Shown here piece by piece: positions 1,140-52,505 of a stretch of DNA of 64,000 nucleotides. The notes below the pieces were generated by a model. That model saw only the letters and a program-made list of their open reading frames with translations. It ran no database searches and was not told the DNA's origin. Numbering within the stretch: the first letter of the stretch is position 1; the number at the start of each line of letters is the position of its first letter. The position numbers were made by a program, and so were the translations under genes. This DNA is from an uncultured Chloroflexales bacterium (GTDB lineage: Bacteria; Chloroflexota; Chloroflexia; Chloroflexales; Chloroflexaceae), in the NCBI GenBank assembly GCA_937918935.1, contig CAKZSI010000050.1, positions 2,736 to 66,735 of the forward strand, in the 5' to 3' direction.

Positions 1140-2594
1140 ATGCGGGTCGTTCGCTTGGCTTTGCCCAGAAACCTGGCCCGCCAGGTCGTGCCCCTGGTGC
1201 TGCTGGTGGCTGGCTCGCTGACACTGGTGGCCCTCGGCGTATTGATCTTGCTTCCCACCAGCCTGATGGTCGGAGCATATCTCCTGCTTGGCGCGCTCGT
1301 GATAGGTATCGGGATCGCTGTCGTTCTGTACTGCCGTGCGCGCGTTGCAGCCTCGACGACCCTGATCGCCTACCTTGTCGTCGTCTTTCCATTGCTCAGC
1401 AGCCTGATTTTCGGGTTCGAGCATAACCCGTTGATCTACCTCTCGGCCCTGGGGGTGGCCTTTGCCGGTCTGCTGGCCGGTCCTCAAACCTTGCGAGCCG
1501 TGACGCCCACCGGTCTGGTTCTGGTATTGGCCCTGGTAATCGCCCCCGTGGTCGTTAGATCGACCGACGGGTCCCTGAGGGCGCGTATTGCTGCCGGGGT
1601 CGCTGTGGCAACCCTGCTGGCAGGGGTCGCGATGACTGCCTGGGTAGGCGTTCATCAGCGGCGGGGTCTGCTTGCCTGGAAGATTAAAATGACCGCTCGC
1701 TCCAGGCGTCGTGAGGAGGCTCTGCAGCGTGTGCAGGCCGACCTGGAGTCGGTGCTGCGTGAGCGCGACCACCTGCGTGACCGGCTCTACCAGCAGCAGC
1801 TCGAACTGGAAGCGGCCCGTGCCGCCGCTGAGGCCGCCGCGCGTGCCAGGGCGGGTTTCATTGCGACAATGAGCCACGAGTTGCGGACCCCGCTGAATAT
1901 CATCATCGGCTTCAGCACGGCGATGATTGAACACCCGGAAATCTACGAGGTTCAGACCCTGGCGCCGCCGATCGTGGCTGACCTGGCCGAGATCCGCCGG
2001 AGCGGCCAGCATCTGCTGCGCCTGATCAATGAGGTGCTCGATCTGGCCCAGGTTGAGGCGGGGCGCCTGGAGTTGAACCTCGCGCCCCTCCCGCTGGTGC
2101 CGGTGCTTGACGCGATGCTGCAGGCGGCCAGAGGGCTGCTGCAGAATCGACCCGTGCAATTGCGTCGCGAGTACGGCGGCGCCCTGCCCATGGTTGTCGC
2201 CGATGAAGTGCGGGTGCGCCAGGTGTTGCTCAACCTCCTTTCCAACGCCTGTAAGTTTACCCGCACGGGTGAAGTGGCGCTCGGCGCCTGCGCCAATAGC
2301 ATCGAGGTGACGATCTGGGTGCGTGATACGGGCATCGGCATCGCTGCAGCCGACCGGGAACGGATTTTCAACTATTTCGAGCAGGTTGACCGTGACGATG
2401 CCCGGCTGTACACCGGAACGGGCCTGGGTCTGGCGATCTCACGCTGGCTGGTTGAACTGCACGGCGGTCGAATCTGGCTGGAGAGCGAACTCGGCAAGGG
2501 AAGCACGTTCTTTATTACCTTGCCGCGTGTGCCGGCCCCCGGCGTTGGATTTGCCCGGCTGACTGCTGGCCCGGCGCATGGTGAGGGTGGCTGA
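1140..2594 (+). CDS. Membrane-bound sensor histidine kinase
   Basis: About 180 aa of hydrophobic N-terminal helices, a coiled coil, the H-box SHELRTPLN, and N/G boxes (LLSNACKFT, DTGIGI, GTGLGLAISR). Confidence 0.85.
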   Translation: MRVVRLALPRNLARQVVPLVLLVAGSLTLVALGVLILLPTSLMVGAYLLLGALVIGIGIAVVLYCRARVAASTTLIAYLVVVFPLLSSLIFGFEHNPLIYLSALGVAFAGLLAGPQTLRAVTPTGLVLVLALVIAPVVVRSTDGSLRARIAAGVAVATLLAGVAMTAWVGVHQRRGLLAWKIKMTARSRRREEALQRVQADLESVLRERDHLRDRLYQQQLELEAARAAAEAAARARAGFIATMSHELRTPLNIIIGFSTAMIEHPEIYEVQTLAPPIVADLAEIRRSGQHLLRLINEVLDLAQVEAGRLELNLAPLPLVPVLDAMLQAARGLLQNRPVQLRREYGGALPMVVADEVRVRQVLLNLLSNACKFTRTGEVALGACANSIEVTIWVRDTGIGIAAADRERIFNYFEQVDRDDARLYTGTGLGLAISRWLVELHGGRIWLESELGKGSTFFITLPRVPAPGVGFARLTAGPAHGEGG

Positions 2595-2780: not shown

Positions 2781-3251
2781 ATGGCTACGATCCTGCTGGT
2801 TGATGATATGTATACTGCACGATCACTGCTTGAGCGAGTCTTGCGCCTGGTTGGTCGTTATGAGGTCATAGCGGTTGGAAGCGGCGAGGAGGCGGTGCAG
2901 GCCGCCCGTGAGGCTGCCCCGGATCTGGTTGTGCTCGATGTGATGATGAGCAAGCTGGATGGCGTAGCGACCCTGCAAGCCCTCCGCGCGCTCGGGATTG
3001 CCTGCCCGGTACTGGCCTACACCGCGCGCTCGGAACAGTTTCCTGGGGAGTTTGTGACGCACGGTTTCAGCGCCTATTTGCAGAAGAACGGCGATCTCAG
3101 CAGTCTGCTTGCGATGGTGCGGGAGTTGCTCGGTAAGCCGGTCGTTACACTTTCTGACGACATACCGCAGAATGACCCCGGGACGGGCGCTTCTACGGCG
3201 CCTGGTGCGGCCGATGAAGACTTGCAGACGAAGGCGGTAGGCGGCGAGTAG
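2781..3251 (+). CDS. Single-domain (CheY-like) response regulator
   Basis: The receiver signature begins at MATILLVDD, then DLVVLDVMMSKLDG. The ATG at 2781 was chosen over the longer ORF starting at 2631. It sits directly downstream of the kinase. Confidence 0.8.
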   Translation: MATILLVDDMYTARSLLERVLRLVGRYEVIAVGSGEEAVQAAREAAPDLVVLDVMMSKLDGVATLQALRALGIACPVLAYTARSEQFPGEFVTHGFSAYLQKNGDLSSLLAMVRELLGKPVVTLSDDIPQNDPGTGASTAPGAADEDLQTKAVGGE

Positions 3252-3281: not shown

Positions 3282-4094
3282 TCAGCTTCCCTTCTGCACC
3301 ACAAAGACGATCTCGTTGGTGAATTCAAGCCTCTGCAGTCGCCATGCCGCGGCGGCGGCGATGGCGTGCATCTGTGCGGTATAGGTTGTCGCCATGCCAA
3401 CGTTGCGCCCGCCGAGGCTGCGTGTGGGAAACGACACGACCAGGTACGGCGCATTGATCATATGCAGCAGATCCCGCCCGGCGCCGCGGCGCGCGTGTTC
3501 CAGCAGGGGCAGGGTTTTGAGCAGCAGGGCCACGTCGGCGCGCCATGGGGGCAGCGCCCCCGTCAGGTCGCAGACGCCGCTTACACCGTTCAGGCCCAGC
3601 AGGGGCAGGGCCGCGCCGAGAAAGGCGCTCAGATCGGCATACAGATCGCAGGCCAGATAGGAAGCGCCGGGTACGAGCGGCATCCAGGGCGCCGCCAGGG
3701 GATTCAGCCCGCAGGCCAGGTCCATAACGCTGCGGACCGGTGGAAGGGCGGCGAAGATGGCCGGATAGAAGCGCTCCAGGTCGGGCAACCGCTCTCGGGT
3801 GGAGGCGTGCTGCTTCAACGCCTCCAGACAGATAGCGCGGATGCGTGCTGTATCGCCCGCAGCGTCGCGCAATGCGGTGAGCCAGGCCGAGTAGGGCGGC
3901 GTCCGTTCAAGAAACGCGCCGGCGATCTGGTGCAAGCGCCCTTTCGTGGCCTTGACCGCTGCTTTCAGCGAGCCTCGCGTCGCCAGTTCCTGTGCGCCAA
4001 TGGTGCGTACCACCGCTGGATGGAGAGCGCAATATTTGCCGCTTGCCAGCACGCGGGCAACGAGCCATTCAAGATCATCGGGCTCGCGGGCCAC
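3282..4094 (-). CDS. 16S rRNA (guanine1405-N7)-methyltransferase family protein (FmrO/Rmt/Arm-like)
   Basis: Collinear with my recollection of RmtB/ArmA: ASGKYCALHPAVVRTI, LHASTRERLPDLERFYPAIF, the SAM motif VMDLACGLNPLA, LLKTLPLLEHARRGAG, and VVSFPTRSLGGRNVGMATTY. GTG start at 4094. Confidence 0.75.
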   Translation of the reverse strand: MAREPDDLEWLVARVLASGKYCALHPAVVRTIGAQELATRGSLKAAVKATKGRLHQIAGAFLERTPPYSAWLTALRDAAGDTARIRAICLEALKQHASTRERLPDLERFYPAIFAALPPVRSVMDLACGLNPLAAPWMPLVPGASYLACDLYADLSAFLGAALPLLGLNGVSGVCDLTGALPPWRADVALLLKTLPLLEHARRGAGRDLLHMINAPYLVVSFPTRSLGGRNVGMATTYTAQMHAIAAAAAWRLQRLEFTNEIVFVVQKGS

Positions 4095-6276
4095 GTCGAT
4101 CCAGCTTTCCTGACATCGGTTCTATCGCTACCGGCAGAGTAAAGAAGAAGCTCGAACCCCGCCCCAGCTCGCTTTCGGCCCAGATGCGCCCACCGTGCAG
4201 TTCGACCAGGGCGCGGGTGATGCTCAATCCCAGGCCGGTACCGCCAATCCGGCGCGTATTGGTATTATCAACCCGGTAGAACCGTTCCCAGATCCGCGAC
4301 AGTTCTTCGGGCGCGATGCCGATCCCCTGATCGTGTACAGCCACAAGCACAAAGCGCCCCGGCGGATGGTCACCGGGCAGGTCGCTGCTCTGTGCCTCGC
4401 GCATCTCGAGCGTGATTTCCCCCCCTTTGGGACTGTACTTAATCGCGTTGGTGAGCAGGTTAAAGATGATCTGCTTCACCTTGTCACGATCAATGAACAC
4501 CGGCGGCAGAACCGGCGCGACGTCGAAGAGCAAGCGGTGGCGTTCGAGCTGGGTGTGGAGCTGGGTCGTGAGTTCAGCAACGATACCATGGAGTGACGTC
4601 ACCCACTGGTTCAGTTTGACCTTGCCTGCCTCCAGCCGTGAGAAGTTGAGCAGATCCTCGACCAGTTGCGACAGCCGGCCAGCCTCGTCATAGACCGTGC
4701 TGATGAACTGGCGGCGTTCCTCGCCGGTGAATTCGCGGTTGAGCAACAGCTCGGTGTACCCGAGGATCGAGGTGAGCGGTGTGCGTAATTCGTGCGAAAC
4801 GATCGAAACGAACTCATTCTTCAACCGCTCGGCCTCGCCTTCACGGGTTACATCGCTGATGGCCCAGAGGCGCCCGGTAATGCGGCGCTGGTTGTCGTGC
4901 GTGGGCGCCGAGAGGATCTGCAATTCCTGGGTCGGGTTCACCAGGTGCAAACGCAGGACACGGTTTTCGGTCGGGGAGTGCAGGCTGGCGGCGCAGAACT
5001 CGGTGAGACGCAGCGGGTCCTGCAGGCGTGGCAGCAGGGTTTCGACCAGATCGATGGGCACGTGGAAGGCGCTGCGCGAGTGCTCGCAGTCAATGCCAAG
5101 CAGAGCGTACCAGGCCGGATTGGCGCGCAACACCTTGCCATTGGCATCGAGCAGCGCCAGGCCAGTTGGCAGACTGGCGAACACCTGGCCGAGGTAGTTG
5201 GCGCTTTCCAGGGCGTTCTGGTAGTGAATGGCGCGATGCAGGGGCTGAGCCGCCCGTGCGCAGAGGGCGCGCATAAAGGCCAGTTCTTCTTCACCAAAGG
5301 CGTTAGAGCGTGAACTGTCGAGGATGATCACTGCGGCGGCCCGCCCTTCCACAAGGATAGGCGCGGCCAGTTCCGCGCGTGCGCCCGGCCCGGCAGGAGG
5401 CAGGTCGGGCTGCAGGGTGACATCGCGCACCAGCAGCGCGCGCCCCAGGCGCGCGGCGCGTCCCGCCAGCCCACGCTCCCAACTCAGACGTTGACGGTGA
5501 TGCGCCGGCCACTGGCGCCACTGCTCGTGTGGGTAACCCTCATAGACGTGGATGACCAGTTCGCCGGCATCGTGGTCAACCAGGGCTATCGCCCCGGCCT
5601 CGGCGCCGGTGTGTTCCAGGGCGTGGCGGAGGAGCAGGCTGAGAAGGTCGTGGACCCCGAGCATAGCTTCCAGACGCCGGTCAACTGCGGCGAGTTGCTG
5701 TTGCCGCAGGGGCGACAGGGTGAGGCCAGCGGGTGTTTCGCCGTCACTGGCGCCTGCGGGCGCCCCGACAAGCTGGTGTCCTTCGCGGGCCACGGCGATG
5801 GCCAGTTGTGGAGCCAGTGCGGCGACCAGCTCGCAGTGGGCCGGCTCGAACCGGTGGTTATGCTCAGCCCGGAACTCCAGCACGCCCCAGAGCCGTGGCC
5901 CCCAGCGGATGGGGATGCCCAGGTAGGCGGCCTGCACCGCCGGCAGATGCTCACCCGGCGCCGCGGCGTTGCTCACCACGATGGTACGGGCCTGAAACGT
6001 CTCGCCAAGGGCCACCCGGCGCATGAGTTCGTCGTCCCACGGATAGGGCCAGCCATCGAGCGAATAGAACTGCTGCCGCACCGTGCCCGGCATGGCCGAC
6101 TGGAGCCAGCATGTCAGCCGGGCATCGCGGAAGTGCAGTTCGGCGCGCAGCACCTCAAAGAGCCGATGCACCCGTTGCTGGAGGGGTTGCTCGGTGTGAA
6201 TACTGCGGGTCGCCTCGGCCAGAACGGCCAGGGCCTCGGTTGCACGGTCAGTGGGCAGGACCATAGCAGCCGCCAT
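4075..6276 (-). CDS. GAF-GAF-PAS sensor histidine kinase (soluble)
   Basis: 733 aa. H-box SHELRTPLTSILGYTELL. HATPase boxes LLTNAIKYSP, DQGIGI, GTGLGLSITR. No obvious TM segment. Confidence 0.85.
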   Translation of the reverse strand: MAAAMVLPTDRATEALAVLAEATRSIHTEQPLQQRVHRLFEVLRAELHFRDARLTCWLQSAMPGTVRQQFYSLDGWPYPWDDELMRRVALGETFQARTIVVSNAAAPGEHLPAVQAAYLGIPIRWGPRLWGVLEFRAEHNHRFEPAHCELVAALAPQLAIAVAREGHQLVGAPAGASDGETPAGLTLSPLRQQQLAAVDRRLEAMLGVHDLLSLLLRHALEHTGAEAGAIALVDHDAGELVIHVYEGYPHEQWRQWPAHHRQRLSWERGLAGRAARLGRALLVRDVTLQPDLPPAGPGARAELAAPILVEGRAAAVIILDSSRSNAFGEEELAFMRALCARAAQPLHRAIHYQNALESANYLGQVFASLPTGLALLDANGKVLRANPAWYALLGIDCEHSRSAFHVPIDLVETLLPRLQDPLRLTEFCAASLHSPTENRVLRLHLVNPTQELQILSAPTHDNQRRITGRLWAISDVTREGEAERLKNEFVSIVSHELRTPLTSILGYTELLLNREFTGEERRQFISTVYDEAGRLSQLVEDLLNFSRLEAGKVKLNQWVTSLHGIVAELTTQLHTQLERHRLLFDVAPVLPPVFIDRDKVKQIIFNLLTNAIKYSPKGGEITLEMREAQSSDLPGDHPPGRFVLVAVHDQGIGIAPEELSRIWERFYRVDNTNTRRIGGTGLGLSITRALVELHGGRIWAESELGRGSSFFFTLPVAIEPMSGKLDRRGPRAR

Positions 6277-6559
6277 TGCTGCTGCCGGGAGGCAGGCGTT
6301 TCCGCATCAAAACAGCAGCCCCTTCATTGTAGCGCCTGCCGCGTTCCTGTCAAAAAATCTGTCAGGTGCGACAATGATTGCCGTAGCCCCATGTCTGTGG
6401 CCACGTCTTTCGGGCAAGCCCCGGACTCCAGGTGGCGCCCTGGTTCTGGCGATATAGCTGCCAGAAGCAGGACACAATGATCCTGTCGGGCAGCATAGCC
6501 GTCCCAGACCCCGCTGCCGGAGACGGACGTTGCTCAGACCCTGAGCCATGGATCAGCCC

Positions 6560-6629: not shown

Positions 6630-7037
6630 ATGTTCACCCATGTTGACCATATCGGGTTTGCCGTCAATGACGTCGAAGAAGGGATTGCCTTCTACAGCCA
6701 GGCCTTCGGTCTGACGGATTGGGAGCGCATCAGCCTGCCGGATCGGCACATGGCCGTCGGGGTTGCCCGTCTGGGTGATACATTGCTGGAGTTGATCGCC
6801 CCCACTTCTGAGGAGGCGGCCTTCGCCAGGTTCCTGCGCGAGCGCGGGCCGGGGGTACATCATATTGCCTACCGGGTTGACGATATCCGCGCCGCCCTGG
6901 CTGAACTGGCTGCCCGTGGCGTGCCACTGATTGACAAGGAACCCCGACCAGGCATCCATAACACCTTGATAGCCTTCGTGCATCCAAAGGCGGGCGGGCA
7001 GGGCGTGCTCGTGGAACTCGTTCAGCACCAGCATTAG
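6630..7037 (+). CDS. mce: Methylmalonyl-CoA epimerase (VOC/glyoxalase fold)
   Basis: 135 aa. HIGFAVNDVEEGIAFY, LELIAP, GPGVHHIAYRVDDI and HPKAGGQGVLVELVQ are typical of the epimerase family. Confidence 0.85.
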   Translation: MFTHVDHIGFAVNDVEEGIAFYSQAFGLTDWERISLPDRHMAVGVARLGDTLLELIAPTSEEAAFARFLRERGPGVHHIAYRVDDIRAALAELAARGVPLIDKEPRPGIHNTLIAFVHPKAGGQGVLVELVQHQH

Positions 7038-7043
7038 TTCGCT

Positions 7044-8042
7044 ATGACCCATAACGAGCTTGAGGATCGCCGGCTGCTCTGCAGCATGAGTCTGGGGTAC
7101 ACCGCCTACTACGTGTGGTCGGTGCAGGCGAAACGCGAGCGCAAGTACAACATCGCCCGCCTGCTGAACGCCTTCAGCGCCGTCAAGCGAGTACGCGCCG
7201 AGCGGGCTCTCCGCGCGCTCGGCGAGGTGAGCAGTACTGCCAGGAACATCGAGCGCGCCCTCGCCGGTCTCGAACCGGAGGCGGTGGCGACCGGCCCCGT
7301 TACCGGCACGCAACCATTTTCACGCGAGTTGCTGAGCCGCGCGGCCCGCGCCCTGTCCGAGGGACGTGACCTGATGGCGGAGGAACTGGATGATCTCTAC
7401 GTCTGCAGCACCTGCGGCGAGTTAATGGAAGGTGCTCCGCTCGCCACCTGCCCGGTGTGCGGCACAGTCCGCGAAGGGTTCCTCAGCTTTCGCGCCGCCG
7501 AGGCGATGGGCGCCCTCGGTCCTACCACCCTGGTGCGGCGGCTGGAACAGACCCCCGAGACGCTGCAGGCTCTGGTGGCCGATCTGGACGACGAGATGCT
7601 CTCCTGGCCCGTGGGCGGGTATTCGCTCAAGGAACTGGTGGGCCACCTGACCGATATCGACATCGTCTTTCGCGAACGCGCCTGGCTCATTCTGGAGACG
7701 GACGACCCGCGCCTGCCTGGCGCCGATCCGCCCACCCTGGAGAAGGCCGCTGTCTACCGTACCTATCCGATTGCCGAGCTTCTGGAAGCCTTCACCAACA
7801 GTCGCCGGCAGACCCTCAACCTGCTGCGCGGGTTGACCCCCGCTGCCTGGCGTCGCACCGGCTACCACCCGGTTTTCGGCGTCATTCCACTGACCCATCA
7901 GGGGAACTGGGTGGTTGATCACGAACGCGGCTACCTGATCGAGATGGCGCAGATCCGCCACGAGTTGCTGCAGCGCCGCTTTGAACGGCGCTCCATTAGC
8001 ATCCCTGACAATCTGATCCCCGAGGTGCTGGAGGGGGAGTGA
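7044..8042 (+). CDS. Fusion protein: degenerate rubrerythrin-like helices, a Cys4 zinc ribbon and a DinB-like four-helix bundle
   Basis: CSTCGEL...CPVCG ribbon. The C-terminal half (LKELVGHLTDIDIVFRERAW, HERGYLIEMAQIRH) is DinB-like. Confidence 0.6.
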   Translation: MTHNELEDRRLLCSMSLGYTAYYVWSVQAKRERKYNIARLLNAFSAVKRVRAERALRALGEVSSTARNIERALAGLEPEAVATGPVTGTQPFSRELLSRAARALSEGRDLMAEELDDLYVCSTCGELMEGAPLATCPVCGTVREGFLSFRAAEAMGALGPTTLVRRLEQTPETLQALVADLDDEMLSWPVGGYSLKELVGHLTDIDIVFRERAWLILETDDPRLPGADPPTLEKAAVYRTYPIAELLEAFTNSRRQTLNLLRGLTPAAWRRTGYHPVFGVIPLTHQGNWVVDHERGYLIEMAQIRHELLQRRFERRSISIPDNLIPEVLEGE

Positions 8043-8765
8043 TCAAAGGTAGCTGCGGCCCAGGAGCTGGCGCAGGCGCTGGCGTAGCTCCAGGCGCGCG
8101 GTGCGCCCGATGAGGGCGACAAGGAAGAGCCCGATCAGTGCCAGAGGGCCGTAGCGTGGCCGTGTCAACGCCCGTAGGGCTGCGGGGTCGCGCAGGGGGA
8201 GGGGCGAGGCATCGCGTACTTCGACCTTTAAGTCGTCACCGTGCCATTCACGCTCCACCCAGAACAGATGGGGCATGCTGCGCTGGAAGAAATAGTAGGC
8301 CGGGTTGTACTCGTACAGATAGTCGAACAACTCGCCAAACGGCTCGTCCGGCTCCCTGGGGTGGAGCACCAGCGTATCATCTACCAGGTTCACGTACCAG
8401 CGATGGAACGACCAGTGAAACAGGCGCTCGGCGATTTCCGAGGGGCTCTGGATGTAGCCGGCCTTGCAGGTCCGGCGGAGTTCGCGAGCGAACTCCAGCG
8501 GGTCGTCCATATGCTCCAGAATGTGTGAGCAGATACTGTAGGCGAAGACCCCATCTTTGAAGGGCAGATGGTGGGCATCGGCCACGACGAATGGCCGGTC
8601 AACCACCAGATCGCCGCCCCGCTCGCGGTTATCGGCGCCGAGGAAGCGATCAACAAGCACATTGGCGCGCGGATGGGGATTATCGCCGCTGCCTACTTCG
8701 AGTACCAGCCCCTCACGCGGCGGGTTAAGTTTCTGACGCATGGCGGATACGTAGACGAGGTTCAC
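8043..8765 (-). CDS. Class I SAM-dependent methyltransferase with a C-terminal TM anchor
   Basis: Motif I VLEVGSGDNP, then HHLPFKDGVFAYSICSHILEHM, and a hydrophobic tail PLALIGLFLVALIG. Confidence 0.7.
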   Translation of the reverse strand: MNLVYVSAMRQKLNPPREGLVLEVGSGDNPHPRANVLVDRFLGADNRERGGDLVVDRPFVVADAHHLPFKDGVFAYSICSHILEHMDDPLEFARELRRTCKAGYIQSPSEIAERLFHWSFHRWYVNLVDDTLVLHPREPDEPFGELFDYLYEYNPAYYFFQRSMPHLFWVEREWHGDDLKVEVRDASPLPLRDPAALRALTRPRYGPLALIGLFLVALIGRTARLELRQRLRQLLGRSYL

Positions 8766-8924: not shown

Positions 8925-9935
8925 TCAATTCAGATCGTCGCCGCTCAGGCTATCACGGAGGATATCCAGGTTTTCCAGGGCCAGACCGGTACCGATCGCC
9001 ACGCAGGAGGCAGGCTGATCGGCCACGTAGCAGGGCACGCCGGTGACTTCGGTGAGCAGTTCGTTGATGCGCCGCAACATTGCGCCACCGCCGGTCATTA
9101 CCATGCCTTTGTCAATGATATCGGAGGAGAGTTCGGGCGGAGTCTCGACCAGCACGGCGCGCACGGCATTCACAATCGCCTCGAGCGGCTCCTGGATGGC
9201 CTCGGTGATCTCGTTCGAGTCCACATCAATCGTGCGCGGCAGCCCGGCCACCTGGTCGCGCCCGCGCACCTGGGTGGTCAGGGGGCGTTCAAGGGGCAGG
9301 GCCGAGCCGATCTCGATCTTGACACTCTCGGCGGTGCGCTCGCCGATGAGCATGTTGTACTTGCGCTTGACATACGCGGCGATGGCTTCATCGAACTTGT
9401 TGCCACCCACGCGCACCGAAGTGCTCACCACAATATCGTTGAGCGAGATCACTGCCACTTCGGTCGTGCCGCCGCCAATGTCAATCACCAGGTTCCCCGA
9501 AGGTTGCGCCACGGGGATATTGGCGCCGATGGCGGCGGCCAGCGGCTCACGGATGAGATAGGCCCGCCCGGCGCCGGCCTCCAGGGCCGCGTCGCGCACG
9601 GCGCGCATCTCGACGCTGGTTACCCCGGCAGGAATACAGATCATCACCTCCGGTTTGGCGAAGCGAAAGCGACCGGCGACCCGCCCGATGAAGTACTTGA
9701 GCATCGCCTCGGTCACCTGGTAGTCGGCGATCACGCCGTTGCGCATAGGGCGCACCACCTCGATGCTCTCCGGCTCGCGCCCGAGCATCGCCAGGGCCTC
9801 GGCCCCTACCGCGCGCACGCGGCCATCTTTGGTGCTCAGAGCCACCACCGAAGGCTCTGAGAGCACGATCCCCTTTCCTTTCAAGTACACCAGTACATTT
9901 GCGGTGCCCAGGTCAATACCGATCTTGCGGGCCAT
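8925..9935 (-). CDS. mreB: Rod-shape-determining actin homologue MreB
   Basis: [28 protein letters not shown] and [11 protein letters not shown]-type motifs. The ATG at 9935 was chosen over the spurious upstream extension to 10229. Confidence 0.95.
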
Positions 9936-10071
9936 AGATCCTCGATTGTACGTTGCAGCCGGGAACGGCGTCGCAGAAGGCAGGGTTGATGCAACGTCGT
10001 TGGGGCAAGTCTTAAACGTTGTTGTAGGGGATGGTGGCGTTGGCAGCCGATCCCTACACGAAATACCTTTA

Positions 10072-10488
10072 TTACTGGCGCCGTCCAACGTTCTTGAGCC
10101 GCGCCACCTGGAGCCGTACCATTTCCTTGCGCAGCTTGGCTTCGGCAATGGCGGCATCGCGCTCACTCTGGGCCATCTGCTTGCGCTCCTCGGCCAGTTT
10201 GCGCGCCGCCTCGGCGCGGGCCTCATCAATCTCGTCGGCCCGCTCGACCGTATCGGCCAGAATGGTCACCCGCGTGGGCAGCACTTCCATAAAGCCGCCC
10301 GAAACAGCGAAGGGGGTGCGCACCCCGTTCTTGACGATCCCCAGTTCGCCTGGCTCCAGAACCGTCAGCAGCGGGGCGTGACGTGGCAGAATACCCACGC
10401 GCCCGGCCCGCGTGGGGGCGCTGATCAGATCCACATCGTCGGAGAGCACCACCCGCTCGGCGGTGACAATTTCGAGGTGAATGGGCAT
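10072..10488 (-). CDS. atpC: F1 ATP synthase epsilon subunit
   Basis: [42 protein letters not shown]. It is last in the atp operon. ATG at 10488. Confidence 0.9.
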
Positions 10489-19197: not shown

Positions 19198-20868
19198 TCA
19201 GGGCAGGGGCAGGGCGAAGCTGAAGATGCTGCCGCGGCCTTCCTCGCTCTCAACCCAGACCAGGCCGCCCTGGAGCGCGGCCAGGTCGCAGACGATCGCC
19301 AGGCCCAGTCCTGTGCCGCCCTGTTCGCGCGTCAGCGAACTGGCAACCTGATAGAAGCGTTCAAAGATGCGGCCCTGCTGCTCCCGCGGAATGCCGATGC
19401 CGGTATCCTTGACGCGCACCAGGGCCCAGTGCGCGGGCGCGGCGCCCGCAAGGCGGCGCATCGTCGGATTGGCAACGGCGCGAGCAATCTCCGCGGCGAG
19501 GCGTTCGTGCGGCCAGCAGACGACTTCGACGTGGATGCGTCCCCCTGGCGGAGTAAACTTGATGGCATTCTCGATCAGGTTACCTGTCACCAGCAGGAAC
19601 TTCTCCCGGTCAACGTCCAGGATCACCGGCTCGGGGGGCAGGTTCGTACTCAGGTCCTGCCCTTTTTGTTGCGCGGCGGGAATGAGCCGTTCGACCGCCT
19701 GGCGCACCAGCGCATCAAGCGCCGAGCGTTCCAGGGTCAGGGTGGTCTGTTTGCGGTCGAAGTCGCGCAGGTGCAGCAGGTCGTTCACAATGGCCTTGAT
19801 CCGTTCGGCGCCGGTGAGCAGGCGCTGGGCGTATTCGCGCAGATCGCCGCTGCTGCGATCATGCACCATTCTGGCATAGCCCAGCACGATTGAAAGCGGG
19901 CTGCGCAGTTCGTGGGAGGCAATGGCAATAAACTCGCTCTTGAGTCGATCGAGTTCGCGCAGGCTGTTGTAGGCGGCGTCGAGCTGGCTGTAGAGCTGGG
20001 CGTTGTGCAGGGCGTTACCGGCCTGGTTGGCCAGCAGGGCCAGGAACTCGCTGGCCCCGGGCGCGTTCAACGCATCCTCGGCGCCACACAGGAGAAGCGC
20101 ACCAATGGCTGCGCCGTGGGCGCGGAGGGGCACGGCCAGGCCGTAGGTGAGGGGCCTGGCTTCCAGCAGCGCAAGCGGCCCGGCGCTGGCAACCGGCAGC
20201 GGGCGACCGGCGCGAATGCTCTGGGCCACGGCCTCGCGCCCGGCGGGCTGGATCGCGGCGCCAGCGGGTTCGGCGAAGACCCGGGGCGGCAGGTGGTCCG
20301 ATCCGGCGACGAAGAGAAAGCCGGCCTCACCGGGAGCGTGCGCGCGGGCGTGGGCGATAATCTCTCGCGCGAGCTGGTTCCGGTCGAGGATGGCGTTGAT
20401 CGCTTCGCTGCTGCGGAGCAACTCTTCAAGCGCCCGCACGCGCAGGCTCTCCTGCAACAGGCTGCGTTTGTGCAGCGCCTGCTCAACGACGAGGCGCAGT
20501 TCCTCGACCTCGAACGGCTTGGTCAGGTAATCGGCGACGCCGCGGCGCACCGAGGCATGCAGCGTATCAACCGTACTGTGACCGGTCATAATCACCACAG
20601 CGATGGCCGGGTCGATCTCGCGCGCGATCTGGGCCAGTTCCAGGCCGCTGCGCCCGGGCATCCTGATATCGGCGAGCAGCAGATCGAATGGTCCCTGCGT
20701 TTGCAAGGTAGTGATGGCCGCCTCGGCTTCGGCCGCAGTCACGACGGTATAGCCCGTGGCGCTCAGGGCACGGGCGCAGAACGAACTCATCGTGGCGTCG
20801 TCGTCGGCGATGAGCACCCGGCCGGAGTTTGCGGTCACCGAAGAGGGCGCCAGAGGTTCTTGAATCAT
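19198..20868 (-). CDS. Hybrid receiver-GAF-histidine kinase
   Basis: RVLIADDD...LLLADIRMPGRSGLEL receiver, a central GAF-like region, H-box SHELRSPLSIVLGY, then KDTGIGI and GTGLGLAIV. Confidence 0.85.
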   Translation of the reverse strand: MIQEPLAPSSVTANSGRVLIADDDATMSSFCARALSATGYTVVTAAEAEAAITTLQTQGPFDLLLADIRMPGRSGLELAQIAREIDPAIAVVIMTGHSTVDTLHASVRRGVADYLTKPFEVEELRLVVEQALHKRSLLQESLRVRALEELLRSSEAINAILDRNQLAREIIAHARAHAPGEAGFLFVAGSDHLPPRVFAEPAGAAIQPAGREAVAQSIRAGRPLPVASAGPLALLEARPLTYGLAVPLRAHGAAIGALLLCGAEDALNAPGASEFLALLANQAGNALHNAQLYSQLDAAYNSLRELDRLKSEFIAIASHELRSPLSIVLGYARMVHDRSSGDLREYAQRLLTGAERIKAIVNDLLHLRDFDRKQTTLTLERSALDALVRQAVERLIPAAQQKGQDLSTNLPPEPVILDVDREKFLLVTGNLIENAIKFTPPGGRIHVEVVCWPHERLAAEIARAVANPTMRRLAGAAPAHWALVRVKDTGIGIPREQQGRIFERFYQVASSLTREQGGTGLGLAIVCDLAALQGGLVWVESEEGRGSIFSFALPLP

Positions 20869-20999: not shown

Positions 21000-22139
21000 T
21001 TACCCCAGCACTTCCACGCAGGTGCGGGGGAGCCAGAGATCGCTGTCGTCCTCGAGGAGCACGTGCACGGCGGGCAACCCGACGCCCGAGGCCAGACCAC
21101 GCGGCGTGGCCGACAGCGCGCGGATGGTTCCCATTCGCCCCAGATGGGCGTCGTCGAGCAGGCGCACCGTGGCCCCGGGGCGCAGGGCGAGACGCGGGAG
21201 TTCGGCCGGCGTGCCACGTGAGAGCGGCACGATCACCCGTGGGCGACGGAATGGTGCGCGGAGACTGGTTCGTCCTTCGATCAGGGCCTCCTGGCGATCC
21301 AGCGAACTGAGCAGGCCGAAGATAGCCTCGTTCATTGGCCGGAAGCCAAAGCCCTCGGTAAGTACGAGGGTCAATTTGAGATCGGCGGTGACGCGCGCGT
21401 CGGGCAGCGACCATGCGGGGAGGGCTTCGGTCCAGTGCTCTGTGCCCGCCCATTCGAGGAACTGGCGCAGTTCGTGTTCTTCGATCCCGCCCACGATCAC
21501 GCCGCGAACCTGCTCGAGCACGGCCCGTCGCAGGGCGGCTGCGCTGATGGCGGCTCCGCCAATGATAATGGCGTAGGCGCTGCGGGTATCGATCTGCTCG
21601 GGTTGCACGCTATCTGACGGGTCTGTCACCAGGAGCCGGAGCACGCCGGTCTGGTCGGCACCGAGGCCAAATACCCCGTAGACCTGCGCAGCGAGGGTTT
21701 CGATGACCAGGCCGCGGTTCGGGAAGATCTCGGTGACTACGCCGCGCACCCCTGCCGAGAGTTCCTGTTCCACCGGATCGGGGACGATGGTCACGTAGCC
21801 GGTCTCGGTGTCAATGTCAGTTATTTCACCGCTCACCGGTGCGACACAACGGCGCCCGAACAGGCTCCCCGAGCGGGCCAGCACCTCGCCCGCGCCGATC
21901 TTAACGCCCTTTTCGCGGCGCATGGCGCGGTACACATCAGCGGGGGGGATGTTCAGCGCCCGCGCCACGTTGATGATGTGCGGCGGAGCGGGCATAAGCG
22001 TAGTCGCCACAACGTCTTCCGGCTCAACCCGCCGCCCCGGGTTGAACAGCACCTCGCCCGGGTAGGGCAACAGGCGTTCGATGCGGGCCAGGCCCGCCGA
22101 AATCAGCGGAGGGACGCCTTCAGGGTTGTAGACGGTCAT
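21000..22139 (-). CDS. Hypothetical protein (possible lipoyl-like barrel-sandwich N-domain and KOW/SH3-like C-terminus)
   Basis: The coding-looking part begins at MTVYNPEG (ATG at 22139). The upstream 203 codons of the tracked ORF are Arg/Gly/His-rich and overlap the divergent gene. Confidence 0.55.
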   Translation of the reverse strand: MTVYNPEGVPPLISAGLARIERLLPYPGEVLFNPGRRVEPEDVVATTLMPAPPHIINVARALNIPPADVYRAMRREKGVKIGAGEVLARSGSLFGRRCVAPVSGEITDIDTETGYVTIVPDPVEQELSAGVRGVVTEIFPNRGLVIETLAAQVYGVFGLGADQTGVLRLLVTDPSDSVQPEQIDTRSAYAIIIGGAAISAAALRRAVLEQVRGVIVGGIEEHELRQFLEWAGTEHWTEALPAWSLPDARVTADLKLTLVLTEGFGFRPMNEAIFGLLSSLDRQEALIEGRTSLRAPFRRPRVIVPLSRGTPAELPRLALRPGATVRLLDDAHLGRMGTIRALSATPRGLASGVGLPAVHVLLEDDSDLWLPRTCVEVLG

Positions 22140-22352
22140 GCTGCCTCGCGGTGGTGCTCCGGTTTGCTTCGTGATGGAGATTATAGCACAGGCGTGGCGC
22201 TCGGACCGGAAACATCCTCTGCGCACAGGGTGGCGCAACGTTCGCCCCCGGCGGCGGGTTCGTGGCTTGCCCCAATGCCTTCGCAGCGGTTCTGGCAACA
22301 CGCAAGCTGTTATAATGGACCGAACGGCGTTCCGCTTCGCCGCAACACGGGT

Positions 22353-23108
22353 ATGAAACAAGTATGTTCCTGGAGGCGCCTGCTCGCCCTGCTGGCCCTG
22401 GCGGCGCTGCTGAATGCCTGCGTGATGCCGGCGGCTGCGCCCGAGACCCCTGAGCAGCCGCGGTTCTCGCGGGCGGTTGATTTGAGTCACGTGGTGCGGG
22501 AAGATGTGCCGTTGCCAGACGGCGAGCCCCGGCCACGCCTGGCGCGCGCGCCGGACGGCGACGTGACGCGGATCGAGCTGGGCAGCAATACCGGTTCGCT
22601 GCTCCGGGTGGTTCCCGGGCCGGGCGCCGAACTCACCAGCGTCGAGCACCTCTCGCCACGCGACCTGGTGCTCCCGGCGGTGGTGATTGACGCCCGCGAT
22701 CGCGCCCAGGACGCGCCGGCCTTCGCCCTCAGCGCCGGTGATCTGCACGCCTGGGAGCGTCGCTATGGCCGTATTCCGCCGGGGACGCTGGTGTTGCTGG
22801 CCACCGGCTGGGACGTGCGCTGGGGCGATCCGCGGGCCTATCTGGGTGTGGATGGCGGGTCTCCCGCCTCCGTGCCTGGTTTTGGGGCCGATGCGGCGGA
22901 CCTGCTGCTCAACCAGCGCGGCGTGGCCGGCCTGGGGGTGGATGCCCCGGGACGGATCTACGTGCCGGCGCGGGGTTTCGCGCTGTTTCTGGAGAACCTG
23001 ACCAGCCTTGAGCAGGCGCCACCCACCGGCGCCACAGTGGTGATCGGCGTCCTGAAGTTGCAGGGGGCCTCAAGCGCGCCGGCGCGGGTGCTGGCGCTGG
23101 TGCCGTAA
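22353..23108 (+). CDS. Cyclase-family (kynurenine-formamidase-like fold) lipoprotein, apparently lacking the metal-binding His motif
   Basis: Lipobox LLNAC after MKQVCSWRRLLALLALAA. DLSH..., VVIDAR, GTLVLLATGW and GLGVDAP follow the family layout. Confidence 0.6.
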   Translation: MKQVCSWRRLLALLALAALLNACVMPAAAPETPEQPRFSRAVDLSHVVREDVPLPDGEPRPRLARAPDGDVTRIELGSNTGSLLRVVPGPGAELTSVEHLSPRDLVLPAVVIDARDRAQDAPAFALSAGDLHAWERRYGRIPPGTLVLLATGWDVRWGDPRAYLGVDGGSPASVPGFGADAADLLLNQRGVAGLGVDAPGRIYVPARGFALFLENLTSLEQAPPTGATVVIGVLKLQGASSAPARVLALVP

Positions 23109-23740: not shown

Positions 23741-24502
23741 ATGTACGCAATACGCTTACCAGGCTTTAACGGCCCCCTCGACCTCCTGCTGCGCCTGATC
23801 GAGCGCGCTGAGTTTGACATAACATCAATTTCTCTGGCGCAGGTGGCCGATCAGTACCTGGCACACGTGCGGGCGCTGGAGGCGCCGGAGCCTGGCGCAC
23901 TGGCCGAGTTTGTGAGCCTGGCGGCCCGTCTCCTGCTGATCAAATCCCGGGCGTTGCTGCCGCGCCCCGCCGTCGAGGAGCGGCCCGCGCCGTTCCAGGA
24001 TGCGGATGCCGAGGCCCTGGCGCGCCAACTACGCGAGTACCGGCGCTACAAACAGGCGGCCGCCCTGCTGCGCGCCTGGCACGAGGAAGAGCGGCGCACC
24101 TTTCTGCGCCTCGCCCCCGCCCCGCCGGAACTGGATCTGACCCCGCCGCCGGTGCGGCACACGGTGGCCGAGCTGGTCGCCGCGCTTCAGCGCCGCCTGC
24201 AACTGGCTCTGCCACTGGACGAAGCCGAGGTCATCGCCCTCGGCCCGCGTCTGACCGTGGCCCAGGTGGTTGCCGAGATCCTGCGGCGCCTGGAGCGGGC
24301 GGCCTGGTTCAGCTTCGATGACCTGCTGGCGCCGGACACGCGGCGAGAGGAGGTGATCGTCACCTTCTGGGCGGTGCTCGAGTTACTGAAACGGCGCATT
24401 ATCACCGTGGAACAACCCGACCTCTTCGGGATCATCAGCATTGGCCGCGGCGAGGCCGCGCTGGCTCCCATCGAGGCAACGTTCGAGGACCATGAGCTAT
24501 GA
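23741..24502 (+). CDS. scpA: Segregation and condensation protein A
   Basis: LPGFNGPLDLLLRLIERAEFDITSISLAQVADQYLAHV is the kleisin ScpA N-terminal signature. Confidence 0.85.
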   Translation: MYAIRLPGFNGPLDLLLRLIERAEFDITSISLAQVADQYLAHVRALEAPEPGALAEFVSLAARLLLIKSRALLPRPAVEERPAPFQDADAEALARQLREYRRYKQAAALLRAWHEEERRTFLRLAPAPPELDLTPPPVRHTVAELVAALQRRLQLALPLDEAEVIALGPRLTVAQVVAEILRRLERAAWFSFDDLLAPDTRREEVIVTFWAVLELLKRRIITVEQPDLFGIISIGRGEAALAPIEATFEDHEL

Positions 24503-26673
24503 GTGAGCCGCTTCCGGGCAGCAAGCCCTATTGGGAGGGGGCGCTGGCGCTGCCCCTGGGCGATCTGCTGGCCCTGGGCGCCCAGATCCGCGCCCACGAC
24601 GCCCCCGAAGCCCTGCTGCGGGAAGTCGCCGAGACATTGCGCCGCCTGGTCGCCAGCCCGCGGGTGTACGTGCGCCTGCGGAACATTGATACCGACGCCC
24701 TGGAAGCGGTGGCCTTCGCCGGCGTCGCGCCCCCGATCGAGGCGCGGTTGCGCGCCGAGGCCGTGCCGCCGGGGGCCTACCAGGCCCTGTTGCGGGCCGA
24801 ATGGCGGGTGAGCGACTCGTTTTTGGCGCCTGCGGGCGAATTGCTGCCGCTGCCGGCTGATGCTGCGGCCGTGGGGGAGGTCGCCGCGCTCCTGGCGCCG
24901 TTGCGGGGGCGTGGCGAGCGCCTGATCGGCGTGATCTATCTGGCGCTCCCCTATGACAAACTGGCGCGCGATCCAACCCTCGTGCTGGTGATCGAGGCCA
25001 TTGCGCGCCAGGCGGCCATGGCCGTCGAAAACGTGCGCCTCGCCGAGCGCAGCGCCCGCCTGCTCGCCAAGGAGCAACTCCTGGCCGCCCTCGGGCGCGA
25101 TGTCAGCGCGACGCTCGATCTGCGGGCCATGCTTGATCGGACCATCGAGCGCGTGGCGGCGGCCTTCGGCGGCGGTTCGCTGGCCCTGCTCGATGGCGCC
25201 GATACGCTGCTCATCGTCGCGGCAGCGCCCGGCGAGGAGCGCCTCCTTGGTGCTCGGTTCAGTCTCGGCGAGGGGATGATCGGCTGGGTGGCCCGCTACG
25301 ATCGGGCTTTCTTTGCCAACCAGTTCGATGAACATACCCGCTTCCCTCCGCCCGACCCCGCCGCCCGCGCCGCGATTGTTGTGCCACTCCGCAGCGGCGG
25401 CCAGGTGATCGGTACGCTCAACGTCGGAGCGCAACGCCCCGGGGCCTTTACCTACGAGGACGTGGATCTCCTCGAGGCCATTGCCGCCCAGGTCGGCGGC
25501 CCGATCACCTCGGCGCGCCTCTACACCGAGGCGCAGGATCTGGCCGCCCAGGTGCAGCGCCGCGCCGAACAGCTCGCTGTGCTCAACGCCATCGCCCGCA
25601 GCGCCTCGGCCTCGCTCGATCAGGCGGTAAGCCTCCCTGAGGTTGCCGCCGAGATCCGCCGCGGGTTCGACTACGAGCAGGTAGACCTGTTTCTGGTCGA
25701 TGAAGAGACCGGCGATCTGACCCTCGCCGCCTCCGATGGCTGGGTGGCGTTGCCGCGGGCCGGCTACCGCCAGCATCGCAGCCTGGGGCTGATCGGGCGC
25801 ACCGCCCGCAGTGGCCAGATGTTGCTGGTAAACGACGTTACCGCCGATCCCGACTACCTGCCCCTCGCCGAGCGGGCCGACGTGCGCGCCGAACTCGCCG
25901 TGCCCATTATGGCGAGCGGACGGGTCCTCGGCGTGATCAACGCCGAGTCGCCCCGCTCAGGGGCCTTCAGCGAAGAGGATGCGCGCATCCTGACCACCGT
26001 GGCCGACGTGCTGGCCGGCGCGCTCGAAAATGCCCGCCTCTATCGCAAGGCCCAGGCCGCCGCGGTTCTGGAGGAGCGCAACCGGCTGGCCCGCGAGTTA
26101 CACGACAGCGTGACCCAGCAACTCTTCAGCATCACCCTCACCGTGCAGGCCGCCCGGATGCAACTCGAACGCGACCCGCGGCGAGTCGTCCTCCAGCTTG
26201 AGCGGTTGCAGGAGACGGCCACCGCCGCACTGGCCGAGATGCGCGCCTTGATCTACCAGCTTCGTCCGCCCGCGTTGCGCGACCAGGGGCTGGTGGTCGC
26301 GCTGCAGCAACATGCCCGGTTCCTGGCCCATCGCGAGGGGATGGTGATTACCCTCAGCGTCAGCGGCGACGAGCGCCTGGCCCGCGGTATCGAGCAGCCG
26401 ATCTACCGTATCGTGCAGGAGGCCCTGAACAACGTGGTCAAACACGCCAACGCTCGCAATGTCCAGGTGACGCTCGCCTTTACCAGCGAGCGTGTGCAGG
26501 TAGGCGTGCGTGACGATGGCCAGGGGTTCGACCCTGAGGCCCCGCCCACTGGCGACGGGCGGCACTTCGGCCTGTTGAGCATGCGCGAGCGCGCCGCCGA
26601 GATTGGCGGTACGGTGGAGGTCCGTTCCGCCCTCGGTTGCGGCGCCGAGGTGATCGTTACTGTGCCGCGGTAG
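24499..26673 (+). CDS. Multi-GAF sensor histidine kinase (HisKA_3 / NarX-type)
   Basis: ERNRLARELHDSVTQQLFSI H-box, EALNNVVKHANA, and VRDDGQGF. Its ATG overlaps the scpA stop (ATGA). Confidence 0.85.
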   Translation: MSEPLPGSKPYWEGALALPLGDLLALGAQIRAHDAPEALLREVAETLRRLVASPRVYVRLRNIDTDALEAVAFAGVAPPIEARLRAEAVPPGAYQALLRAEWRVSDSFLAPAGELLPLPADAAAVGEVAALLAPLRGRGERLIGVIYLALPYDKLARDPTLVLVIEAIARQAAMAVENVRLAERSARLLAKEQLLAALGRDVSATLDLRAMLDRTIERVAAAFGGGSLALLDGADTLLIVAAAPGEERLLGARFSLGEGMIGWVARYDRAFFANQFDEHTRFPPPDPAARAAIVVPLRSGGQVIGTLNVGAQRPGAFTYEDVDLLEAIAAQVGGPITSARLYTEAQDLAAQVQRRAEQLAVLNAIARSASASLDQAVSLPEVAAEIRRGFDYEQVDLFLVDEETGDLTLAASDGWVALPRAGYRQHRSLGLIGRTARSGQMLLVNDVTADPDYLPLAERADVRAELAVPIMASGRVLGVINAESPRSGAFSEEDARILTTVADVLAGALENARLYRKAQAAAVLEERNRLARELHDSVTQQLFSITLTVQAARMQLERDPRRVVLQLERLQETATAALAEMRALIYQLRPPALRDQGLVVALQQHARFLAHREGMVITLSVSGDERLARGIEQPIYRIVQEALNNVVKHANARNVQVTLAFTSERVQVGVRDDGQGFDPEAPPTGDGRHFGLLSMRERAAEIGGTVEVRSALGCGAEVIVTVPR

Positions 26674-26730
26674 GGCGATGGGGAGCAACGGGTTCTCCAT
26701 CGCCCTCCGAGCGGCGCGAGGCTGCCGGCG

Positions 26731-26780
26731 CCCCTCCCCGGGCAGGGGAATGTGGAACCCGGGTTTCCCCATCCCCCTGC
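26731..26780. repeat. REP-like palindrome copy
   Basis: CCCCTCCCCGGGCAGGGGAATGTGGAACCCGGGTTTCCCCATCCCCCTGC. Confidence 0.8.
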
Positions 26781-26860
26781 AACCGGCTAGATTGACGAGG
26801 TCCTGGCTCTCCCGGACTCTCCTGTGAGATAGCTCTGTTCACCTCAGGAAAGGCTGATCA

Positions 26861-50189: not shown

Positions 50190-50218
50190 ACACTTCGCTC
50201 CACGGATCAGCCACTACG

Positions 50219-50368
50219 ACGAGGCTTCCTCTCGACGGGCGCCGGGGGCCACAGGCCCCCGCAGGATCCTGCCTTCCGCTGCGGCGCGGTGTTATCCCGC
50301 TGCAGCGGAAGGGACATGTCGGAGGAGGCTTCGCCCCTTCAAGCCTCCTCGACCAGAAGAAGCCTCGT
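50219..50368. other. Highly structured spacer (closing stem plus three internal hairpins) between the Ser/Thr kinase stop and the STAND regulator start
   Basis: ACGAGGCTTC (50219-28) pairs with GAAGCCTCGT (50359-68). Internal hairpins: GGGGGCC-ACA-GGCCCCC (50244-60), CCTTCCGCTGC/GCAGCGGAAGG (50272-82/50302-12), and GAGGAGGCTT/AAGCCTCCTC (50322-31/50341-50). Confidence 0.4.
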
Positions 50369-50370
50369 TC

Positions 50371-52320: not shown

Positions 52321-52464
52321 GGGTGGTGTGCGACCTGCCGATCCGGGCGCATTAGAGCTATTGTAACATACGCTTTGCCCTGGGCAAGTTATGTCATGCG
52401 TCCAGGTAATAAGAAATGTTTCTGGGAGGCCCAGGCCCTTCTCGACCCTCCCCTCAGACGGCGG

Positions 52465-52489
52465 TGTGGGGTAACCCGGTTGCCTGTGT
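52465..52489. repeat. Degenerate REP-like copy
   Basis: GTGTGGGGTAACCCGGTTGCCTGTG. Confidence 0.5.
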
Positions 52490-52505
52490 AACGATAAAAT
52501 TAGTC

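Follow-up and report, generated by a model that had tools for sequence, protein, structure and literature searches.

Why should a gene for a 16S rRNA methyltransferase of the aminoglycoside-resistance type overlap the end of a sensor kinase gene in a member of the Chloroflexota, and does the kinase control it? Here we describe a 64,000-nucleotide (nt) stretch of contig CAKZSI010000050.1 from an uncultured Chloroflexales bacterium of the family Chloroflexaceae (hereafter the window, 64 kb), in which the gene for a homologue of the FmrO-family 16S rRNA (guanine1405-N7) methyltransferases begins inside the 3′ end of the gene for a GAF-GAF-PAS histidine kinase. No higher level of resistance to aminoglycosides in clinical use is known than that conferred by methylation of G1405. 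An initial annotation, made from the sequence alone, recognised both genes and offered two explanations for the arrangement, namely regulated protection of the ribosome or a housekeeping modification of rRNA. We consider that the gene encodes a housekeeping-type intrinsic enzyme forming 7-methylguanosine at position 1405 (m7G1405) that has been captured into a kinase operon, and put the probability of this reading at about 60%. Gene structure, fold and residue conservation, together with family membership, distribution across the phylogeny, gene-order history and purifying selection, can be read from the data; we infer where the enzyme methylates, its resistance phenotype, the co-transcription and coupling of the two genes, and that the kinase does not control it.

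The FmrO protein and its relatives

The hidden Markov model search proposed in the initial annotation returned a full-length match of the 270-amino-acid (aa) product to the Pfam family FmrO (PF07091; 230.9 bits against a cutoff of 27, E 2.1e-68, profile positions 2-255 of 255). The closest relative of solved structure is Sgm from Micromonospora (PDB 3lcu), with an E-value of 2.5e-59, or 3.3e-76 when a profile is used, followed by RmtB, RmtF, RmtC and ArmA. An AlphaFold2 model generated with 20 homologues (mean predicted local distance difference test score 92, predicted template modelling (TM) score 0.88) has helices over residues 5-115, the first of them formed by residues 5-16, and then a beta/alpha Rossmann core. 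The predicted protein thus has the two-part architecture of an N-terminal helical 30S-binding N1/N2 domain joined to a C-terminal class I S-adenosylmethionine (SAM) methyltransferase fold. Foldseek superposes the model on Sgm 3lcu with a TM-score of 0.90 and a root mean square deviation of 1.8 Å, at 42% identity over the structural alignment; every one of the top 16 PDB matches is an m7G1405 methyltransferase, and beyond them the E-value weakens from 1e-11 to 1e-7, by more than four orders of magnitude.

Functional residues were mapped by taking their roles in RmtC from Nosrati et al. 2019 (10.1101/712810) and aligning the window protein by profile to RmtC (8ghu, native numbering). The SAM ligands Arg111, Asp160 and Asp188 of RmtC (10.1101/712810) correspond to R102, D150 and D176 of the window protein, and these residues, together with SAM motif I, are invariant or nearly so in 20 diverse Chloroflexota sequences. 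Seven RmtC residues bind the 30S subunit or position G1405 (10.1101/712810); Lys20, Arg50, His54, Lys236, Arg241 and Met245 correspond to K20, K51, H55, R225, R230 and M234, so that all but Arg211 are retained, with conservative K/R swaps, and they are mostly invariant in the 20 Chloroflexota sequences. In the same profile alignment Y21 of RmtC falls on Y21 of the window protein. Pfam, the match to Sgm, the predicted structure and residue conservation therefore agree with the family assignment made in the initial annotation, and the two motifs that it quoted, VMDLACGLNPLA and SFPTRSLGGR, are both present (Table 1). Comparison with orthologues gave ratios of nonsynonymous to synonymous substitution of 0.18-0.29 for the FmrO gene and 0.10-0.16 for the kinase gene, low values which indicate that both are maintained by selection. 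Membership of the m7G1405 methyltransferase family is solid, and catalysis is predicted.

Gene order, distribution and the origin of the kinase junction

At E ≤ 1e-10 the FmrO protein matches 3663 database proteins, the closest of which come from metagenome-assembled genomes of Chloroflexaceae at 80-92% identity. When one genome per species was scanned, at least 587 genomes proved to encode a homologue. The best 80 of these, which supplied the loci for gene-order analysis, are nearly all from Chloroflexota, with two from Armatimonadota, and include Chloroflexaceae, Oscillochloris, Chloroflexus (with C. islandicus), Kouleothrix, Roseiflexaceae, Herpetosiphonaceae, Caldilineaceae, Anaerolineae, Thermoflexales and Ktedonobacteria (with Tengunoibacter). 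In a neighbour-joining tree with the characterised enzymes, a comparison also suggested in the initial annotation, the Chloroflexota sequences form one group that branches broadly according to taxonomy, with Sgm as its sister and RmtB, RmtF and RmtC outside. These homologues confirm that the window carries a chromosomal copy in a non-actinomycete. The novelty implied for such a copy is weakened, however, as the family tree in Fig. 1A of Nosrati et al. 2019 (10.1101/712810) already contains uncharacterised Chloroflexi homologues.

Composition and context also place the gene among long-standing residents of this chromosome. Its G+C contents at the three codon positions (0.70/0.52/0.77) are like those of its neighbours, and the nearest plasmid gene, rmtB2, encodes a product (RmtB2) of only 36% identity, with the nearest phage gene at 29%. 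Among the approximately 48 genes of the 64-kb window there are no mobile-element, transposase or integrase genes and no genes of aminoglycoside biosynthesis; those present include genes for ATP synthase, MreB, ScpA, RecO, PEPCK, a TRAP transporter, a class A penicillin-binding protein and ClpB, as well as many two-component genes. The FmrO gene is a resident, vertically inherited Chloroflexota orthologue, and is neither mobile nor associated with an antibiotic producer. As an observation apart, the phage match is an FmrO-family gene on contigs labelled 'Acinetobacter phage MD-2021a' (CAKLQH020000068.1 / CAKLQF020000043.1; H13, H14), possibly a resistance gene of the armA type on a contig that carries a phage label.

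The usual setting of the gene is quite different from that in the window. When the flanking open reading frames of the 80 loci were clustered, 74 loci had enough upstream DNA to be informative, and in 59 of these the gene directly before fmrO, on the same strand, is one of about 373 aa that overlaps the fmrO start by a median of 5 nt (examples of the pair are L010:380-2332, L015:4879-6792, L058:3946-6789 and L078:4851-6822). The product of this preceding gene is a bacterial-type tRNA-guanine transglycosylase (Tgt), with a Pfam TGT match of about 300 bits, visible DSGGFQ and CxCxxC motifs, and scores of 289-307 bits against the TIGR00430 Tgt model (cutoff 306.75). Upstream of tgt, again on the same strand, 22 loci including one Armatimonadota genome carry rsmI, the gene for the 16S rRNA C1402 2′-O-methyltransferase (TIGR00096, 212.9 bits against a cutoff of 167.9). 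These adjacencies identify a cluster of translation-apparatus modification genes, (rsmI-)tgt-fmrO, as the usual Chloroflexota setting, and the cluster looks like an ancestral operon. No copy of tgt or rsmI lies elsewhere in the 64-kb window. The literature we searched contains no account of a tgt/rsmI-fmrO operon or of a kinase-fmrO junction, and the phylum-wide tgt/rsmI context is a more interesting by-product of the analysis than the kinase overlap from which it arose.

The kinase-fmrO arrangement occurs only in the window and in eight further Chloroflexaceae loci (L001-L008), whose FmrO proteins are 65-92% identical to that of the window; in none of the other 72 of the 80 loci does a kinase gene adjoin fmrO. 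The GAF-GAF-PAS kinase has full-length orthologues across Chloroflexales, and within the junction clade it sits in a syntenic block that begins with ATP synthase, mreB and a methyltransferase gene, passes DinB and glyoxalase genes, which are read from the other strand, and continues with the kinase and fmrO; beyond these, again in the opposite orientation, are a receiver gene, a second kinase gene (HK2) and a vWA/SBP gene. The stretch from fmrO through the receiver, HK2 and vWA/SBP genes is syntenic in L002-L012, the next clade out (L009-L012, Oscillochloris-like) having kept these downstream genes with tgt 5′ of fmrO in L010 and L011 and sua5 in L009. In Chloroflexus the kinase orthologue lies in the same upstream block (ATP synthase-mreB-...-DinB-glyoxalase-kinase) and is followed by a convergent M17 peptidase gene (L086:7001-10752); in Ca. 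Chloroploca, again with the same upstream block, a metallophosphoesterase gene follows 4 nt downstream (L087:7001-9818). The 3′ flank of the kinase gene is a recurrent rearrangement point. Since fmrO occurs without the kinase in the outgroups, and the kinase without fmrO in Chloroflexus and Chloroploca, the junction is a rearrangement breakpoint peculiar to one lineage.

Table 1. Coordinates of the fmrO-kinase junction, its flanking signalling genes and the sequence elements discussed in the text
Feature	Position (nt)	Strand	Details
FmrO-family 16S rRNA (guanine1405-N7) methyltransferase homologue	3282..4094	-	270 aa, GTG start
SAM motif I, VMDLACGLNPLA	3693-3728	-	residues 123-134; D125-LACGLNP fits D-x-A-C-G-x-N-P
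SFPTRSLGGR..M loop	3405-3434	-	SFPTRSLGGR at residues 221-230
Cytoplasmic GAF-GAF-PAS histidine kinase	4075..6276	-	733 aa, ATG start
Kinase GAF 1			about residues 30-164 (Pfam)
Kinase GAF 2	5245-5652	-	residues 209-344 (Pfam)
Kinase PAS_8	5026-5187	-	residues 364-417 (Pfam)
Kinase HisKA	4624-4821	-	residues 486-551, phospho-acceptor His495 (Pfam)
Kinase HATPase_c	4126-4491	-	residues 596-717 (Pfam)
Overlap of the two genes	4075..4094	-	20 nt; non-conserved C-terminal tail of kinase with first FmrO codons
Weak Shine-Dalgarno-like stretch, AGGAAAGCTGGAT	4099..4111	-	inside kinase coding tail; GGA 5 nt before GTG
Sigma-70-like promoter, TTGACA-N16-TACAAT	6326..6353	-	about 50 nt upstream of kinase ATG
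Receiver-only response regulator	2781..3251	+	about 156 aa, MATILLVDD start; Pfam Response_reg; convergent with FmrO gene
Membrane histidine kinase HK2	1140..2594	+	HisKA-HATPase_c, several transmembrane segments; directly upstream of receiver gene

Probable expression of the pair and the alternatives to the proposed capture

The overlap itself is read directly from the sequence: the kinase gene ends with TGA at 4077-4075 and the FmrO gene begins with GTG at 4094-4092, an overlap of 20 nt, and both open reading frames lie exactly where the initial annotation put them. In the FmrO frame there is a TAG at 4124, and the GTG at 4094 is the sole start codon between this stop and the onset of homology to Sgm at residue 9. 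Residues 2-14 (xREPDDLExLV) are kept in the FmrO frame across orthologues and sister genomes while the C-terminal tail of the kinase shifts frame, and the JGI and NCBI gene callers choose the equivalent GTG in sister-genome contigs. The conservation of these residues, the place of residues 5-16 as the first helix of the model and the agreement of independent gene callers fix the start, and on the same grounds we rejected a downstream GTG at Val15 (nt 4052), which would abolish the overlap. The weak Shine-Dalgarno-like stretch upstream has counterparts at the equivalent position, GGAG in L001 and AGGT in L004, and may have a role in FmrO initiation.

Geometry varies within the clade. The 20-nt overlap is shared by the window, L002, L003 and the metagenome contigs L081-L083, and a 4-nt GTGA overlap is found in L001, L004 and L005; a 4-nt indel in the non-conserved tail of the kinase explains the difference between them. 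The two genes are separated by 4 nt in L008, 58 nt in L006 and 118 nt in L007.

The sigma-70-like promoter upstream of the kinase gene agrees with the consensus at 11 of 12 positions, and no other exact TTGACA-N16-TACAAT occurs in the 64-kb window. Its hexamers and spacing are kept in L002, L003/L081, L001, L006 and L084 while the flanks diverge, and it likely drives a kinase-FmrO bicistron. (An extended form, TTGACAG-N15-GCTACAAT, is kept in at least six related genomes and might serve as a reference Chloroflexaceae promoter.) A scan for the sigma-70 consensus found no promoter-like site in the 3′ region of the kinase gene, between the genes, or in the gaps of L006 and L007/L084. A candidate terminator between the genes was rejected, as the hairpin and T-run at 4171-4153 (minus strand) lie in the coding sequence of the conserved GSSFFF motif of the kinase; the same hairpin position recurs in the kinase coding region of L084 (9808-9824), after the G2 box, and the hairpin is probably a by-product of coding. 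RNA leaders, riboswitches and tRNAs are absent from the 64-kb window. The overlaps or short gaps in nine genomes, the lack of an intergenic promoter and the conserved promoter upstream of the kinase make co-transcription and translational coupling likely within the clade, much as the initial annotation had supposed.

Taken together, we envisage the following history and mechanism. The FmrO protein would attach by its N-terminal helical domain to the assembled 30S subunit and, with SAM as cofactor, methylate N7 of G1405 in helix 44 of 16S rRNA. In most Chloroflexota and some Armatimonadota fmrO is the last gene of a tgt-fmrO, often rsmI-tgt-fmrO, operon, an arrangement that looks ancestral and sets fmrO among housekeeping genes acting on the translation apparatus. 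A rearrangement in one Chloroflexaceae sub-lineage, to which the window belongs, severed the link to tgt and set fmrO, along with its downstream receiver, HK2 and vWA neighbours, at the 3′ end of the conserved GAF-GAF-PAS kinase gene. Having lost the tgt-operon promoter, fmrO is now most likely transcribed by read-through from the sigma-70-type promoter of the kinase, and its translation is most likely coupled to that of the kinase through the 20-nt overlap (4-nt GTGA in sister genomes). The outcome would be a low and approximately constitutive expression, adequate for an enzyme that acts catalytically. Ribosomes would then be expected to carry m7G1405 constitutively, and the cells to be intrinsically insensitive to 4,6-disubstituted deoxystreptamine aminoglycosides.

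Several points weigh against this reading. The FmrO tree sets L009 and L010, which lack the kinase, beside L007 and L008; a tree of the second marker, HK2, places both outside the kinase-linked group, and a single origin of the junction is likely on the basis of shared synteny and the HK2 tree, as opposed to FmrO topology. The gaps of 58 nt in L006 and 118 nt in L007 are wide enough that independent initiation is possible there, and the promoter scan detects the sigma-70 consensus only, so that an internal non-consensus promoter would escape it. Arg211 of RmtC is replaced by His200 in the window protein, and Sgm too lacks an equivalent arginine. The NCBIfam equivalog model for Rmt enzymes (NF000466) scores 223.5 bits against a cutoff of 250, so the window protein, although a member of the family, is not to be annotated as one of the Rmt resistance alleles; the specific RmtA-H models score 80-130 bits against cutoffs of 500-550. 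Finally, the literature we searched holds no published aminoglycoside-susceptibility data for Chloroflexota.

One alternative is that fmrO and the kinase gene are simply uncoupled neighbours, with fmrO transcribed from a weak non-consensus promoter of its own in the 3′ region of the kinase gene and the overlap a neutral by-product of a frameshift. The 4-nt indel that separates the two overlap classes in a non-conserved tail fits such a view, as do the 4-118 nt gaps of the more distant members, which show that the geometry is not conserved, and the weak GGA before the GTG would permit independent initiation. Yet no promoter-like element was seen in the 3′ part of the kinase gene or in the gaps of L006 and L084, and the rearrangement would have removed the ancestral tgt-operon promoter, leaving read-through from the kinase as the simplest source of transcription. 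We regard uncoupled neighbours as unlikely.

Signal-regulated protection is the more attractive proposal at first sight. The GAF/PAS kinase would sense a cytoplasmic cue, possibly antibiotic stress, and autoregulate its own operon through a response regulator, so that G1405 is methylated on demand. The kinase has intact H, N, G1 and G2 boxes and, with no convincing transmembrane segment in its 733 aa, appears soluble and cytoplasmic; it shares one putative transcription unit with the overlapping fmrO, in an arrangement under purifying selection in nine genomes (the window and L001-L008). One report describes acquired m7G1405 as disturbing endogenous methylation and affecting the fitness of E. 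coli (PMC3923132), in which case inducible control could be advantageous. The operon, however, contains no cognate DNA-binding response regulator of the kind expected in a two-component module, and the linkage is not conserved across lineages. The nearby receiver-only protein is encoded on the opposite strand, its stop codon 30 nt from that of fmrO (sister genomes call it at 119-157 aa); it is probably the partner of the membrane kinase HK2, the receiver-HK2 pair being syntenic independently of the GAF-PAS kinase. The promoter is near consensus and of a constitutive type, and with kinases making up at least four of the approximately 48 window genes, chance adjacency to one is not unlikely and is weak evidence of regulation. 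Nothing in the data points to regulation of the methyltransferase by the kinase, which is thus not supported, and signal-regulated protection as a whole seems to us distinctly unlikely. Of the two explanations offered by the initial annotation, housekeeping modification fits better: it gains from a gene that is phylum-wide and follows tgt, often with rsmI upstream, and regulated protection loses from a linkage confined to one small clade, with no regulator, kinase orthologues elsewhere that lack fmrO, and kinases in abundance.

A further alternative is that the target has changed, such that the Chloroflexota clade methylates another position of 16S rRNA, or a tRNA, and gives no aminoglycoside resistance. 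The sub-cutoff equivalog score and the lack of the functionally important Arg211 would be consistent with a different substrate, the conserved partner Tgt is itself a tRNA-modifying enzyme, and the searched literature contains no characterised Chloroflexota member. Against this, the whole two-domain predicted fold superposes on Sgm, nearly all of the residues that bind the 30S subunit and position G1405 are kept and invariant across the diverse Chloroflexota sequences, and Sgm, the closest characterised relative and a proven G1405 enzyme, does without Arg211 just as the window protein does. A changed target is accordingly improbable. That the gene is a recently acquired resistance determinant, or the self-resistance gene of an aminoglycoside producer, the two settings in which the family is best known (PMC13602947), is effectively refuted by its host-like composition, its place near ATP synthase and mreB in a chromosomal block whose synteny extends to several species, a 64-kb window free of transposase, integrase and aminoglycoside-biosynthesis genes, a phylogeny broadly following taxonomy, and the low identity of the nearest plasmid and phage genes.

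Other genes of the window deserve brief mention. Divergent from the kinase gene, and adjoining it across Chloroflexales, is a pair at 6630-8042 (plus strand) comprising a glyoxalase-family gene (135 aa) and, 6 nt further on, the gene for a 332-aa protein with a rubredoxin-like zinc ribbon (weak RUBY_RBDX match) and a DinB_2 domain. At 8043-8765 (minus strand), flanked by mreB and the DinB gene, is the class I methyltransferase gene (Methyltransf_11, 232-240 aa), which keeps this syntenic position both within the clade and in Ca. Chloroploca. For mreB itself (8925-10229, minus strand) the longest open reading frame, 434 aa from a TTG start, is too long; relatives have 336 aa, and the true start is probably internal. 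Signalling genes are dense (19198-20868, minus strand; 24499-27508, plus strand; 46674-52320, minus strand), with a receiver-GAF-HisKA hybrid kinase, a triple-GAF HisKA_3 kinase with a LuxR-type regulator, a 1171-aa STAND/BTAD regulator and a Ser/Thr protein kinase. Three predicted proteins have no Pfam match (21000-22748, minus strand, 582 aa; 52416-53429, plus strand, 337 aa; 57934-59643, plus strand, 569 aa), and the last of these genes has a third-position G+C content of 0.62, unusually low for this genome.

Relation to known systems and significance

The family, its fold and its mechanism are already well known, and the locus adds no new mechanism. Database annotations already name these proteins 16S rRNA methyltransferases. 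The closest characterised relatives are Sgm, GrmA, KgmB and FmrO of aminoglycoside-producing actinomycetes (Kgm family, PDB 3lcu/3lcv), which have the same N1/N2 plus Rossmann layout, share the DLACGLNPLAAPWM motif and the FPT[KR]SLG.R..GM loop with the window protein, and like it are chromosomal and intrinsic. Unlike them, the window gene is not in an actinomycete and is not part of an antibiotic cluster, but falls in a Chloroflexota clade of its own that extends through the phylum and in which tgt and rsmI are the customary partner genes. The acquired RmtA-H and ArmA enzymes, carried on plasmids of Gram-negative pathogens, are of the same Pfam family and fold and have in common with the window protein the SAM-binding residues (R102, D150 and D176) and K20, K51, H55, R225, R230 and M234 for 30S and G1405 recognition. 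The window protein differs in its identity to RmtB of approximately 36%, its score below the equivalog cutoff, its chromosomal location and the absence of a mobile context.

By taxonomy and family, the window protein is one more member of the Chloroflexi group listed by Nosrati et al. 2019. Their Fig. 1A (10.1101/712810) only lists these homologues, whereas we describe their gene context, both the tgt/rsmI operon and the kinase junction. A 2026 review (PMC13602947) still confines its account of m7G1405 to plasmid-borne genes and to producers among the actinomycetes, and our literature search found no functional test of a Chloroflexota FmrO member. Housekeeping rRNA methyltransferases offer another comparison: RsmI (which forms Cm1402), RsmH and RsmF are likewise chromosomal, conserved at the level of the phylum and under purifying selection, and fmrO clusters with rsmI in 22 loci, but fold, family and target atom differ. 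In the literature searched, a housekeeping role for m7G1405 has been demonstrated in no organism.

On a practical level, regulation should not be read into adjacency in kinase-rich genomes. The kinase overlap is instead best regarded as an example of a gene that has lost its own operon and been captured by a neighbouring one. It is very doubtful that, beyond a native phylum-wide m7G1405, the level of methylation in this lineage also tracks a cytoplasmic signal through the GAF/PAS kinase operon; were this true, such kinase-dependent control would mean that rRNA modification in nature can depend on a signal.

We see an even chance that the decoding centre of Chloroflexota natively carries m7G1405 throughout the phylum, the enzyme being encoded at the end of an ancient rsmI-tgt-fmrO operon, and that the resistance enzymes of producers and pathogens descended from such a housekeeping enzyme. 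As a vertically inherited gene beside tgt and rsmI, Chloroflexota fmrO constitutes one of the largest reservoirs of the family; this reservoir points to a housekeeping origin of the family, and on its basis a major environmental phylum is predicted to be intrinsically insensitive to aminoglycosides.

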